Shown here piece after piece: positions 49,901 to 55,900 of a stretch of DNA of 64,000 nt. How positions within the stretch are numbered: position 1 is the stretch's first letter; each line of letters opens with the position of its first letter. Made by a program: the position numbers. Source of the stretch: Escherichia coli O157:H7 (GTDB lineage Bacteria > Pseudomonadota > Gammaproteobacteria > Enterobacterales > Enterobacteriaceae); NCBI RefSeq assembly GCF_013167455.1, contig NZ_CP038328.1; one strand, given 5' to 3'.

Positions 49901-52900
49901 TTTTATGCGTATTGAGATCTGCATAGCCAAAGAAAAAATGACTAAAATGCCAAACGGTGCTGTGGATGCGTTAAAGGAAGAATTAACCCGACGCATCAGT
50001 AAGCGTTATGACGATGTAGAGGTGATCGTAAAAGCCACCAGCAACGATGGCCTTTCTGTTACGCGCACCGCCGATAAAGATTCAGCTAAAACTTTTGTTC
50101 AGGAAACTCTGAAAGATACCTGGGAGTCTGCTGACGAGTGGTTTGTTCACTAATTAACACGTAAAATCGGTAACGGCTGGAAATCATTCAATACTCGCAC
50201 TATCGAAAGTTCGCCAGCCAGCCGTAGCACGTTCTTGCATACGACGTGCCGCGGATCCTATTATTCTAGTATGAAATCCCTAACCGATTTCAAATTCTCC
50301 AGACTGCTCAGATTCTCTTTTATCCCACGCTGGCGCTGATAAATCTCGTCATTGCAATCGACCTGCGCTATCGCTGCCGCAGTTCTTCCAGTTTCTGCAT
50401 CGATAACTCCATCTTCTGAGCAATAAACCTCACCTATGCAATATTTTATGTCAATTATTTCAATTGCATTAATATCTTGAATGGATTACATAGAGTTAAT
50501 GTATCCAGTACTCCCTATTCTCTTGCATATAATACATGTTGCAACTTACATCTCAGCGCTATGAAAAAACACCACCTCTCTCTTTATGAAATTCTGGATT
50601 TACCAAGCGCTAATTTATCATTTCAATCTACCTTTAAGCATTGCATTTATCTCCCTACGAGGTCATACTTTAGGAAGTTAAATATGAATGATAATATACC
50701 TACAGCGCGAAATCACAAACAATCGACTTGTATTACAGAAAAAAACATGCCTATCTTTTTAAACTTCACAGCAGGCAGTATCTTACCTGAGAATGAGCTA
50801 GCATCTTTACGTTATATTGTGCAGCAAAATCAAAATGATACTGTAATCATAAAAGAACGTTATAAAATGGATATCCGTTATATCGAATCAGTCAATGGTT
50901 TTACAGTAAATCCTGTATGCAGTAATCATTTCTCCATATTTATGGCGAGACAAAACACTATTGCTCGCAACCTGGAACAGCAGATCAACAACGGACGAAG
51001 TTTTGCACAAATATCTCAGGATTTTATGCTTCAATTATCTTCAAATATAGGATGGAAAAAAGGGGCCGAAAACGCCCTTAAAAATAAAATCCATTCTCAT
51101 TCATTTGTTGTAAATCCTGATGAATTCTCTTGCGACACACAATTTCTTAAGTGCCCAATAACATTATGCGTTCCAGAAAAAGGGGTTTTTGTCAAGAACG
51201 CACTGAACTCCAACATATGCACTCTTTATGATAAGTCTGCGTTCATGAATCTCACAAGAGAACATCTACCCCACCCTCTCAGCAGGGAAAAGATAGTAAA
51301 AGAAATGATTATTGAAAGGAATATGTGTTATTTTGACACCATAAGTCAGCATTTCATAATTATGGATGCAGACCAACAGAAACAGCATTGTAAATAAAAT
51401 GTAATAATTACATACTATTAGTGATTCTCATGCATCGTAAGCGGCTCGCCAGAACCGTATTGATATTTACTGAGCGCTCAGATCAACTTTCCATGGCAAC
51501 AGATCGCGTACCCGGTTTGCCGGCCAGTCCTGGATATGCTCCCGCCGACAATATTAATGGCCAGGAAATGTTTAAAACAATGATTCTGTTTCCTAACCAT
51601 CAAGTGTATATGCTGGCTCAATTACTCAATATCTATGGGTTGAGTTCTACCCAAAGTGGCTCTGTAGTCGCTTCTTCTTACAGTATGTTCAGGTGTTGCA
51701 GGCACAGTTGTGGAGCGTAGATGCGTTGTTGGTTTACCATGCTCTGGTACATAAAAAACGCCAGTGCCATGGTAACCTGATATAGAAACGTTAATTCCGC
51801 GACGTTCAAACTCGGCATAGACGTGTTCTGCTAAAGACCTCTTTTGACCAAATAATGCCCTGGCCAACCAGCCGTTATTCATATTTGCGGATTTTTCTAT
51901 TTCATCAGGAGAGAAGTCTTTGTTTTTTATTATGTTGGCTGAGTTACAGGATGTTAATCTGATATCATCTATTTCATGAAGATTATGTTGAACAATGCGG
52001 TCGACAATATCTGACGGTGATAAAAATTCATCTCCGCACTTAAGAAGAGGTAGACCAGCAGAACCATGCCCAGACAGATAAATTTTGTTGTATTTTCCTG
52101 GTGTTAAATCATCTGGCAGGATGGTTTTCATCTCTGTCGCTGTAATACTTATAGCTGCAGCAGCAACAACATCGCTATTACTTGATTGTAGATGGCTTTT
52201 ATTTGCTCCAGGATATGTAAACTCCATTTTCCTTTTATCAAAATCTTGTTTTGTAGCATCATTCAGGAATAATAAATCATACGGTTTTTTCCCGTTGTGA
52301 CTCTTGAAACATTTTGGCCAAGAATATTAAGAGTATAGTCATTAACGGATTTCATTCCTAAAAAAACAAGTAATCCTTCTTTCTCTTGCGCTTTTTCGAT
52401 TGTTCTCCCTGCTAAAGTTATTGGGATGGATTGAGATTGTTTTGTCGGAACTGATACGCTGGCGCTAATAGGTAGTAGGGTTCTTATGCTAAACATACAA
52501 CCTCTTTCTTAATTTTCGAACCTGTTTAGGATTCTGTGTAAATTCAAAATAAACCTGTCTGAACATTCCTAACAAACATCCACCGGACATGACAACAAAA
52601 ACCGGAGCCGGACTCCGGTTTTTGTGAAGCTGTCGGCTATTTCATTCCGCCAATATTTTCCCACGTCCCGTCAGCACGCAGGATTTGCAGCGGTCTTACC
52701 ACGCACTGTATCTGCTTTTTATCCGCATCCAGTATCACCACCTGTGTGATTACCCTGTCCTGCTCCGGGATAATGCCATTCTCATCTGACTCCAGAATGT
52801 CTGCCGGTCCCAGTCGCAGCTGTGCTGTAAGTAACTCCCCGTGTTCACGGTCATCATGCTTTCCGCAACCACACAGACGCTGCATAAGTTTTTTTAGTAT

Positions 52901-55900
52901 GTTCATGTCATTCTCCTGTTCTGCCTGTATCACTGCCCACTTCATCCAGCCCCTTAACATCCTGCCACGGCCCGTCACCAAACCTGACCTGCAAATGCCG
53001 AAACAGCCCCTGAACCTGTGTGGCATCTTTGGGGTCAAGAAAGGTCAGTCCGGTGATGAGTGCGCCATCTGTATCCGGGAACCAGCCATTGCTGTTTGTC
53101 TCAATAATGCTCGCCGGCCCCAGACGAAAACGGATTTGTGTCTCCCCCGGGTCGCCCTTCGGTCCCTGAGGTCCGGTTGCCCCCACCGGGCCAGCCGCAC
53201 CTGTTTCTCCTTTCGGTCCCTGTGGGCCTGCCGGGCCTGCCGCACCGGTATCTCCCTTTGGACCCTGTGGACCTGCATTTCCCGTCAGACCGGTCTCTCC
53301 CCGCTCTCCCCTGTCACCTTTCGGCCCCTGCGGGCCTGCCGGACCAGCATCACCTGCCGGTCCCCGTTCGCCGGTTGCCCCGACAGGGCCGGTGTCACCG
53401 CGCTCTCCCTTATCACCCTTCGGCCCCTGAGGACCCGCGGGCCCCTGTTCCCCCTTTGGCCCGGGAGGTCCCACCACGGTGGGGATTCGGTTTACGGCCT
53501 CTTCCGCCGCTATCCTGCTTTGTTCCGCTGACTGTGCGCTTTCTGCTGACTCCCGGGCTTTTTCTGTTGCGGTCGTTGCATCCCTGGCTGCATTACCGGC
53601 TGCACTTTCTGCCGTCTTTCTTGACAATTCAGCTTCTGCTGCACTTTGTAATGACTCACTGGCTTTTTGAGCGGCCGCAGAGGCCGAGGACGAGGACGCC
53701 TCCTCTGACTGCTTTGCAGCGGCTGCACTTTCTGCCGCCTGCCGGGCTGACTCCGATGCATCCCCTGCTGAAGTATCAGCATTTGCGGCGCTCGCTTCCG
53801 CCTTACTGGCTGATATGCCGGCATTCCTCGCGGACGTCTCTGCTTCTCCGGCATTCTTCTTCGCCTCCTCTGCGTGACGCGCTGCTTCTTCCACCATCAG
53901 TTCAAAACGACGCAGTGCCTCCGGACGGACGTCATCCTCCGACATGGCACCGAGAAAATCATTCAGCGTCCCCGGTTGAGAATCTTCATACACGGTGATG
54001 GTCCCGGCATGTGACGGCGGGAATCCTTCCACCAACAGAATGACGCTGTACTGACCGTACTCAACGTCCATGCTGTAACGACCGGCTTCATCCGGATTTT
54101 CAGAGGCCACCGTGTTCACCACCACCGTGCTGCTGGTCCGTCTGGCTTTCAGTTGAATGGTACAGTTCTCTACCGGTTTTCCTGTGCCGTCTTTCAGTAC
54201 ACCTGAAATCTTTACTGCCATATTCACCCCACAAAAAAGCCCGCCTGAACCGGCGGGCTGTCATAACACTGTGTTACCTGGCTAATCAGAATTTATAGCC
54301 GATACCCACGATGAAGCCGTCAGTGCGCCAGTCGCCACTGGCGGAACCTTCATAAGCAAGGTCAATAACCACCGTCTCTACGGGACTGAACTGAATCCCG
54401 GCATTCCAGGCCGGCGACAGATGACGCGCAGTATGGCCATCACTGGCGGTGGTGGTCTCCTTCACATACCCCGGTTTCACTTCATCACGCCGGTAATCCT
54501 GAACACTGTCAGACCAGCGGGTGTACGCCATCCCGGCCATGCCATAGAGACTGACCCGCTCACTGAGCTGCCAGACAGGGCCGGCCATCAGACTGACATA
54601 ACGACCGCGCAGGCTTTCATAATGGAAGGTATTTTCACCCGTCTTCATCGTGTCACTTTTCTTCACCGATGCATAACTCAGCGCGACAATGCCGCCCAGG
54701 TGATCCGTGAACTCATAACGGTATTTCACATTAATCCCTTTTAAATCACCTGCACGCGCACCGGTACCGGACAATGCCGGTACGCCGCCCGGGTGAACCT
54801 GAGCATATCCCACGGAAAATGCACCGTGTCCGCTTTCAGCCTGTGCAGGAAAGGCAATTCCTGCCAGCAGGGTAGTAAACAATAATATCGTTGCGTATAA
54901 ATGCCGCATGATTACCTCTTTGTTTTCAGTCAATAAAAAAGGCACCTCCTGAGGTGCCCGTCCGGGTTAATAAACCGTCAGCTGATACTGATCCCTGCCG
55001 TGGATTTTTTCATGACCACAACCAGTAAATCACTGATGTACGTTGTCGGCGTCCAGTTGTTCGCACCGGCCGACGACACATTAAACGTCAGGGTGACATG
55101 ACCCCGCCCTGCCGGCATATCTATCACCGATGAGAACACCCGGCTGACATCCGTTGCCGGTTCATGGAAAATCTCAACCCCGTTCTTCAGCACCTGCAGC
55201 TTACAGGTGGAATACCAGTACGACTGCTGATTCGGGCTGTTGAAATTCTGGTGTTTCGTCCCGCGAAACAGCACCGGGGGAATGATAATCTGCCGGTCGA
55301 ATCCCTGGTCATCGTAAACTGTGACGGTTACCGTCCCGCTGGCATAACTGTTATTCCGGGGAAAGGCTTTCCCCACCGTCTTCACCAGGTCGCCTTCAAT
55401 CTGGTTTGCAGACAGTTTCCCTCTGATGACACAGTTCTCGTTAATGGTGACATTATTGAGCGTGCCGGTATTCGCGGTAATTGCTCCGCTGATATCCGCG
55501 TTCCTGGCTGTCAGCTTCCCTTCCGGCGTCAGGGAAAACGTCGGGGGGTTGCCGGATGACGTGATACTCACCGCAAACAGTCGCTTCAGGAACACGTCGT
55601 TCATGAACAGCTGATTCCCCTGCGCCACAAATAACGGCGTGCTGTTGCCGCTCTCCGGATTTATCATCGCGATACGGTCAGCCAGCAGCAGTATGTTGCT
55701 CAGTGGCTGGCCATCAGTATCCTCAATCCCTGCACCAATCCCGGCCACATAGGGAATGCCGTCTTTCGTTTTTTGAACCTTCAGCATGTACAGCGCAGCC
55801 AGGTCATCATTTGTGTCCTTCTGCACGCGCTGTATCTGCTGAATGGTGGCGCTCTGGTCTTCCAGCGTTTTACTGACCGTCTGTGTGATTTCATTGCGGG

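Follow-up and report, generated by a model that had tools for sequence, protein, structure and literature searches.

We analyzed a 64,000-nucleotide (nt) stretch of the Escherichia coli O157:H7 genome (contig NZ_CP038328.1 of assembly GCF_013167455.1), referred to here as the window, in which a small open reading frame (ORF) of 89 amino acids directly follows stf, the gene for a collagen-like side tail fiber. The region forms one end of a lambda-like prophage adjoining dusA, and positions 52500-54300 are 99.9% identical to several Shiga-toxin-type strains. The features of the fiber gene and of the small ORF are as follows.

52908-54221, minus strand: stf, collagen-like side tail fiber of EPclA architecture (ORF list, Pfam, and RefSeq annotation of the 99.9%-identical locus)
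53823-54221, minus strand: PfN attachment domain of Stf (phage_tail_N, PF08400; Pfam E = 6.3e-69, residues 3-135)
53142-53471, minus strand: collagen Gly-X-Y shaft of Stf (Pfam Collagen matched twice, residues 253-362)
52944-53135, minus strand: fiber tip PfC (PF06820, Phage_fiber_C; Pfam E = 9.9e-36, residues 365-428, model positions 1-64)
52913-52917, minus strand: AGGAG Shine-Dalgarno sequence of the small ORF, within the last stf codons (read from the sequence)
52637-52906, minus strand: small ORF, 89 amino acids, with ATG at 52906 and TAG at 52639-52637

The stf product is 437 amino acids long from the ATG chosen by the NCBI Prokaryotic Genome Annotation Pipeline (PGAP); the frame is open from a GTG at 54227, giving a 439-residue ORF, and ends at the TGA at 52910-52908. 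Stf has the domain order of EPclA, namely PfN, a coiled-coil region, one collagen domain, and PfC. The coiled coil is putative, the segment at about residues 136-250 having been judged Ala/Glu/Ser-rich by eye rather than by formal prediction. Periodic direct repeats of 99 nt and 9 nt run through the collagen region, and an 11-residue, near-invariant C-terminal tail (52911-52943) follows the tip PfC. At the DNA level, relatedness to lambda stf is found only in the PfN part of the fiber: blastn aligned window positions 54300-53872 with lambda 19571-19999 at 89.7% identity (covering the end of lom, the spacer that follows it, and approximately the first 117 codons of stf), and the rest of the fiber past codon 117 or so and the DNA at the tfa position were unrelated to true lambda. 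The PfC of EPclA has been found experimentally to mediate trimerization and to renucleate the triple helix of collagen (Ghosh et al. 2012, PMC3368898); the portion of that study drawn on here does not discuss the small ORF.

The small ORF encodes a second copy of the tip module. BLASTP aligned Stf residues 366-427 with residues 28-87 of the small protein (25/62 identities, or 40%, with 63% positives; E = 2e-13), and residues 27-88 of the small protein matched the 64-position PF06820 profile from end to end (model 1-64, E = 6.5e-36). This PfC domain, codons 27-88 (52643-52828), is preceded by an N-terminal extension of 26 codons (codons 1-26, 52829-52906), within which residues 3-11 are predicted to be helical. 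The protein as a whole matched phrog_576 (residues 1-89 against profile positions 1-89 of 89, E = 1.8e-60) and is identical to RefSeq WP_001023407 of the 99.9%-identical locus, for which the product name is "phage tail fiber C-terminal domain-containing protein". It is approximately 40% identical to the tip, has three Cys residues compared to none in the tip, and lacks both the shaft and the 11-residue C-terminal tail. A preliminary description of this region, made from the sequence alone, had placed a shared module at 52637-53130, at the end of Stf and in the small ORF. The module proved real, with PF06820 matched at about 1e-35 in both copies, and the coordinates essentially right, the small ORF lying at 52637-52906 and the fiber PfC at 52944-53135. 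The similarity holds at the protein level but not at the DNA level, where the longest exact word shared by tip and small ORF was 9 nt, out of register, and blastn returned nothing meaningful. That description had also allowed that the small ORF might be a known assembly chaperone with no relation to the tip; the tip-domain family PF06820 was the only Pfam family matched by the small ORF, and NCBIfam gave no match. One other reading of the small protein was rejected, this being that an L-C-G-C-G-K motif near its N terminus marks a lipoprotein or a cystine knot: Cys14 is Tyr in 13 of 81 copies, the Cys positions differ in the loci L085 and L086, and no hydrophobic signal-peptide core could be seen by eye.

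The beginning of the small ORF is closely tied to the end of stf. A single base separates the stf stop TGA (52910-52908) from the small-ORF ATG (52906-52904), the junction reading AGGAGAA-TGA-C-ATG (AGGAGAATGACATG), and this 30-nt junction was identical in 79 of 81 loci sampled from IMG/VR. Overlap with the Shine-Dalgarno sequence of the small ORF accounts in part for the near-invariance of the Stf tail. No promoter-like site was found in 52300-54400. At two other loci, L082 and L085, the fiber gene and the small ORF overlap by 14 nt. Because the small ORF starts 1 nt after the stf stop and has its Shine-Dalgarno sequence inside stf, it is most likely translationally coupled to the fiber by termination-reinitiation.

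The same junction could be read instead as the site of a programmed +1 frameshift at the stf stop, which would yield a minor fiber with two tandem PfC domains (Stf-D-MNILKK...). The small ORF is indeed in the +1 frame relative to the fiber, both in the window and in L082, and the stop context of UGA-C with a Shine-Dalgarno-like AGGAG just upstream is superficially like the prfB site. The Shine-Dalgarno spacing differs from that of prfB, however, and the final sense codon is GAA, which cannot re-pair on AAU. The geometry in L082 is also different, the 14-nt overlap there having a +1-frame stop just before the ATG. Mondal et al. (2016, PMC5155283), working on the Stx2 phage Sp5, found no frameshift signal.

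Protein evidence is available from phi24B, the gp59 protein of which belongs to the same 89-residue family. For the 2026 phi24B cryo-EM preprint, spectra from purified virions were searched against entries that included gp61, "gp59_start", and two fusions hypothesized to arise by +1 frameshift, Fusion_6159_FS1 and FS2 (735 amino acids), as recorded in the supplementary proteome; the 735-residue fusion was thus searched for by the authors themselves (Fusion_6159_FS1), and the row carries their label "Spike or just gp59?". Neither gp59 nor a fusion or frameshift is mentioned in the main text of the preprint. Within the portion of the supplementary data examined, the gp59-specific peptides ADGTWENIGGMK and VITQVVILDADKK were identified in purified virions, and both are present in the protein of the window small ORF. 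The junction peptide TGEDMNILK, diagnostic of the frameshift product, was not seen in that portion. The low-mass gel slice EA1829 was the only sample there in which a gp59-containing fusion entry exceeded gp61 (25 compared to 24), and an excess in a low-mass slice fits a free small protein of about 10 kDa. A programmed frameshift is therefore unlikely, and we give it a very small probability. The peptides hint that the small protein is made and that traces of it co-purify with virions.

We estimated the ratio of nonsynonymous to synonymous polymorphism (pN/pS) by the pairwise method of Nei and Gojobori. The small ORF was intact in 81 of 82 sampled copies, a fraction biased upwards, as nonsynonymous divergence (dN) is biased downwards, by the choice of the 81 IMG/VR loci as the best protein matches. 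Its pN/pS was 0.106 overall, made up of 0.33 for the extension (the N-terminal 26 codons) and 0.057 for the PfC part, compared to 0.25 for the PfC of the fiber tip. The PfC part of the small ORF is thus under strong purifying selection. For the tip PfC, 28 variants are listed among the sampled loci, and across the window and loci L002-L081 two-state substitutions (AS/GN, N/H, D/G, D/A, A/T, Q/R, L/F, R/Q) recur at about 8 positions in many combinations, a pattern indicative of frequent recombination between the numerous prophage copies, of diversifying selection, or of the two combined.

The small ORF is abundant within a narrow group of hosts. Among 5,426 complete E. coli genomes, 697 carried it, at 6,753 places in total and with a median of 11 copies in each carrier, and the tip PfC DNA was found at 6,149 places in 696 of these genomes; from these counts, the two occupy essentially the same set of genomes. 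A word-indexed search returned 176 clusters in which the organism, where named, was E. coli, E. albertii, or Citrobacter rodentium, and when 1.84 billion representative proteins were searched exhaustively with a profile, no more than 83 hits were obtained, most of them partial sequences of these E. coli-group proteins. The family is narrow.

These data bear upon the possibility that the small ORF has no function and is a leftover from an earlier exchange of modules, simply carried along. The homologue in Sp5 is dispensable (PMC5155283), some database copies have frameshifted or truncated extensions (P0040, P0094, and P0090, for example), and the extension is loosely constrained, with its pN/pS of 0.33. 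Such a leftover would not be expected, however, to remain intact in nearly all sampled copies with so low a pN/pS in its domain part, to keep its start codon and Shine-Dalgarno sequence, to retain 53-60% identity across a lineage split over which synonymous sites are saturated or nearly so, or to give rise to the gp59 peptides of phi24B noted above. The leftover reading is already disfavored, and little probability attaches to it. The earlier proposal of a remnant of tip exchange is not supported, on the same grounds: the small ORF has its own ATG and Shine-Dalgarno sequence, is intact and strongly constrained, and stems from an old duplication.

The age of the duplication was examined by comparing tips and small ORFs between two lineages of the pair. 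The results were as follows.

Small ORF compared with small ORF, between the two lineages: 53-60% identity, dN 0.29
Tip compared with tip, between the two lineages: 34-38% identity, dN 0.71
Tip compared with small ORF: 29-40% identity, dN 0.58-0.67

Synonymous sites are saturated or nearly so across the lineage split. The tips of both lineages share an FGDGxWQD motif and the C-terminal tail, and the small ORFs lack both; the duplication therefore predates the split. The comparisons indicate that the duplication is old, that both copies have been kept, and that the small copy evolves more slowly. A divergent member of the family, P0129, lies with a 14-nt overlap behind a non-collagen fiber that itself ends in a divergent PfC; it had no match among complete E. 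coli genomes at megablast sensitivity.

The pair of tip and small ORF was found to recur on several shafts; the rare chimeras P0063 and P0128 are discussed below. The pair lies behind a 212-residue non-collagen fiber adjoining a baseplate-wedge gene in L085, behind a J-like fusion fiber in L086, and behind another non-collagen fiber in L082. It also lies behind the 645-residue EPclB podovirus fiber of Sp5 and phi24B, which are short-tailed Stx2 phages. The pair is thus carried on four different fiber shafts, in siphovirus, podovirus, and baseplate-bearing settings, with the small ORF always in the slot that tfa occupies in lambda. Two of these loci have features of their own. Over positions 102-2846 of L086, a J-like central fiber continues in frame into a side-fiber-like distal part and a truncated or frameshifted PfC tip, after which comes the small ORF; a deletion may have fused J to stf here. 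The hybrid lambda h434 imm21 (L083; OM418627.1, 19733-22808) carries the same EPclA-type stf and 89-residue small ORF and, beyond them, genes for type III effectors annotated as NleB-like and NleC-like, and so a tractable laboratory phage with the stf/small-ORF module exists.

Mondal et al. (PMC5155283), who reported the equivalent 89-residue ORF68 of Sp5 to be non-essential, suggested that it might be a "reservoir" for fiber variation. According to this reading, the small ORF is kept mainly as spare coding sequence that can replace the tip by recombination or deletion and so alter host range. Evidence that such a replacement can take place comes from one microhomology.

52801-52814 and 53354-53367, minus strand: direct repeat D8, a 14-nt microhomology (13/14 identical) between the GPAD codons of the small ORF and GPAG codons of the collagen shaft

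Deletion between these repeats removes 553 nt (1 mod 3), which cancels the +1 frame offset of the small ORF; performed in silico, it gave an in-frame fiber of 343 amino acids with a collagen shaft ending in the small-ORF PfC. The database protein P0063 (4 member sequences) matches this product except for one junction residue, and P0128 is a chimera of the reciprocal type, with the N-terminal part of the small ORF joined to the C-terminal part of the fiber tip. The small-ORF domain can thus become the tip, but does so rarely: the chimeras are very few compared to thousands of normal copies. No deletion-fusion allele was found among the top complete-genome matches, a weak negative in that the search merges both parts of the query into a single place.

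Several features argue against a role as a store of tip sequence. Tip and small ORF lack the DNA identity needed for homologous recombination, and, apart from the collagen periodicity, the repeat search turned up just a few short microhomologies. A silent cassette would need neither a conserved ATG and Shine-Dalgarno sequence nor a pN/pS of 0.06, below that of the expressed tip, and the small paralogue is less variable than the tip, the opposite of what is expected of a diversity store. As noted in the preliminary description, no invertase or reverse transcriptase is found nearby; neither appears among the ORFs listed for 48-56 kb or in what PGAP annotated at the 99.9%-identical locus, no domain search having been aimed at either. 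The arrangement does not resemble tip switching of the Cin/Gin/Pin type, as the two modules are on the same strand, inverted repeats do not flank them (the only one found lies inside stf), and no invertase-like gene is annotated. Nor does it resemble a diversity-generating retroelement, given modules without significant DNA similarity and the absence of an annotated reverse-transcriptase gene. We consider the reservoir reading quite unlikely. The idea of an alternative tip, also raised beforehand, accordingly finds little favor, lacking switching machinery and DNA identity; what survives of it is the rare deletion allele P0063, which does have the small-ORF domain on a collagen shaft.

The reading that we tentatively favor is that the small ORF encodes a fiber-tip accessory protein, helpful rather than indispensable. 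The small ORF is a genuine, conserved gene: the tip module was duplicated long ago and the copy has been kept as a fixed 3' partner of PfC-tipped fibers, filling the slot of Tfa behind lambda stf. The small protein would be made in step with the fiber by termination-reinitiation and, by analogy to the fiber PfC, would itself trimerize. It could then act on or at the fiber tip, either by aiding the register of PfC and nucleation of the triple helix or by remaining weakly bound. This reading draws upon the position in the tfa slot (in lambda, tfa comes directly after stf), the coupling to stf, the linkage as a cassette across different shafts, and a level of constraint above that of the exposed tip. 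The curated record for lambda h434 imm21 also names the small ORF "tail fiber assembly chaperone". A more specific proposal, about which we are more doubtful, is that the small protein represents a new kind of accessory that evolved from the trimerization/tip domain of the fiber and took over the Tfa slot, with a pre-formed trimer that templates or caps the PfC tip.

A number of observations weigh against an accessory role. The small ORF is not a member of the Tfa family by sequence, nor does it resemble any known fiber chaperone; a tblastn search with lambda Tfa against window positions 52400-52700, an interval limited to the final 64 nt of the small ORF and what lies downstream of it, gave a best E of 1.1. 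Sequence and profile searches of the Protein Data Bank returned chance matches only, with no solved relative. Structural support was likewise not obtained from AlphaFold2, which modeled three small-ORF chains joined by Gly-Ser linkers from a 10-row alignment with a mean predicted local distance difference test score (pLDDT) of 32.7; the phi24B authors similarly report no confident AlphaFold model for the PfC domain. The abundance of the phi24B peptides is low, with a count of 3 each for ADGTWENIGGMK and VITQVVILDADKK (read as spectra) compared to up to 181 per gp61 peptide in the data examined, and their presence in virions may reflect contamination. The sampling bias noted above also inflates the apparent constraint. 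Recombinant EPclA and the isolated PfC trimerize without the small ORF (PMC3368898), and ORF68 of Sp5 is among the non-essential late genes, the fiber gene ORF67 being essential (PMC5155283). The last two results together exclude the role of an obligatory chaperone in these relatives. Of the origins first proposed for the small ORF, a tip-derived chaperone or partner is nonetheless the best fit by position and co-inheritance, provided that the partner is not obligatory.

The dispensability of the Sp5 homologue, which extends to both plaque formation and lysogenization (PMC5155283), raises the alternative of a role outside assembly. The small protein could be a free mini-tip, a soluble PfC trimer that is produced together with the fiber, is released at lysis, and binds the ligand of the fiber or some other ligand; it could block receptors on debris or neighboring cells. 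It has neither shaft nor attachment domain, is merely a trace component of phi24B virions in the supplementary data examined, and is conserved strongly enough that some function is indicated. By eye, however, its N terminus (about 13 residues, some of them charged) does not look clearly like a signal peptide, and the Cys of the lipobox-like L-x-G/S-C motif is not conserved. With approximately 60% divergence from the tip, a shared ligand is not expected, and a physical partnership is the simpler explanation for the strict cassette linkage to PfC tips across different shafts. We regard the mini-tip as unlikely, and retain the tip accessory as the working interpretation.

The small ORF belongs to the same family of 89-residue proteins, composed of the extension and PF06820, as ORF68 of Sp5 (from E. 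coli O157:H7 Sakai), gp59 of phi24B, and phrog_576. In all of these phages the small ORF lies directly downstream of a gene for a PfC-tipped collagen-like fiber. The setting differs in that Sp5 and phi24B are short-tailed Stx2 phages with a 645-residue EPclB fiber, whereas the fiber here is a 437-residue EPclA in a long-tailed lambda-like prophage with J, lom, and stf. The PfC of EPclA, as described in PMC3368898, is of the same Pfam family, and the window Stf is of the EPclA type; the small ORF differs from that PfC as a paralogue with approximately 40% identity that lacks shaft and C-terminal tail, has three Cys residues, and evolves more slowly.

Comparison may also be made with the tail fiber assembly genes. 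Like lambda tfa, P2 G, and Mu U/U', the small ORF is immediately 3' of the fiber gene with stop and start abutting or overlapping, and like the assembly proteins it is co-inherited with its cognate fiber tip as a cassette. Unlike the Tfa type, it has no sequence relationship to that family, is homologous to the tip itself, and has a dispensable relative in Sp5. Small C-terminal modules are known to drive trimer registration of fibrous shafts, as with the C-terminal intramolecular chaperones of the K1F endosialidase and T5 pb1 and the foldon of T4 fibritin. Such modules work in cis, whether they are cleaved off or retained, whereas here the tip PfC is retained and a second copy is supplied in trans. 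The likeness is one of concept only, as no sequence or structural link was found.

The gene pair is already catalogued (RefSeq, phrog_576), and its nature as a tip duplication is already in print. The present analysis refines this picture by adding the coupling, the contrast in selection, the age of the duplication, the behavior of the pair as a cassette in different virion types, the absence of DNA identity usable for recombination, and the microhomology-deletion allele. Most lambdoid prophages in Shiga-toxin-producing and enteropathogenic E. coli have PfC-tipped collagen-like fibers, and the carriers include phages through which stx and type III effector genes spread; knowing what these fibers bind, and whether the small protein affects their assembly or host range, would help explain transmission of Stx phages. 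An accessory of the new kind proposed above would, if real, explain why a two-gene cassette moves with PfC tips among siphoviruses, podoviruses, and baseplate-bearing phages, and a small protein that stays on the tip could add to receptor contact in Shiga-toxin phages. The matter is also relevant to engineering of lambda-type fibers, in which any partner gene that is needed must move with the tip. The scale is modest: with the pair catalogued and the Sp5 relative dispensable in the laboratory, no new principle is indicated, and the picture is refined rather than changed.

The remaining features of the transcription unit, in which the gene order is J, lom, stf, small ORF, and terminator, are as follows.

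54978-58454, minus strand: J, first in the gene order
54286-54909, minus strand: lom
52592-52625, minus strand: intrinsic-terminator-like hairpin and U-tract at the end of the stf/small-ORF unit (RNA fold)

The 81-nt stretch containing the terminator hairpin folds at -30.1 kcal/mol (z = -3.25), and the stretch 3' of the small ORF is conserved across many Stx phages. At the place corresponding to window positions 52570-52636, the PGAP annotation of the 99.9%-identical RefSeq genome has a pseudogene of 67 nt named "tail assembly protein", frameshifted and with both ends missing. Similarity of this segment to lambda Tfa was not reproduced, and the segment is mostly terminator hairpin; the call is probably spurious. 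An initial interpretation of a downstream hit and of this pseudogene as a remnant of lambda tfa was withdrawn, the "tail fiber assembly chaperone" that had been hit being the small ORF itself in the lambda h434 hybrid. A second terminator-like hairpin with a T-run (54238-54259, minus strand; 8 pairs, 7 of them G-C) lies between lom and the start of stf, so that transcription of stf and the small ORF would need to read through it, presumably via late-gene antitermination.

A distant phage-fiber-like protein of 565 amino acids, P0147, has four tandem repeats of about 70 residues N-terminal to its collagen domain. The C-terminal halves of these repeats resemble the second half of PfC (…VVVLxADxxxxxGxxGILxVRxADGTWxEIPA…), indicating that PfC-like units can occur stacked in series.

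The region adjoining the fiber end of the prophage contains dusA (47620-48657, minus strand), a tyrosine integrase gene (48746-49843, plus strand), a DinI-like gene (49905-50153), part of a capsid gene (50150-50236), nleG7 (50747-51397), which encodes a type III effector, and espS, which is frameshifted (51622-52496); directly after espS comes the fiber end. The integrase is on the same side as the fiber and the effector cargo, unlike the situation in integrated lambda. This placement suggests either a separate, decayed dusA-integrating element in tandem with the prophage or a different layout of att and int.

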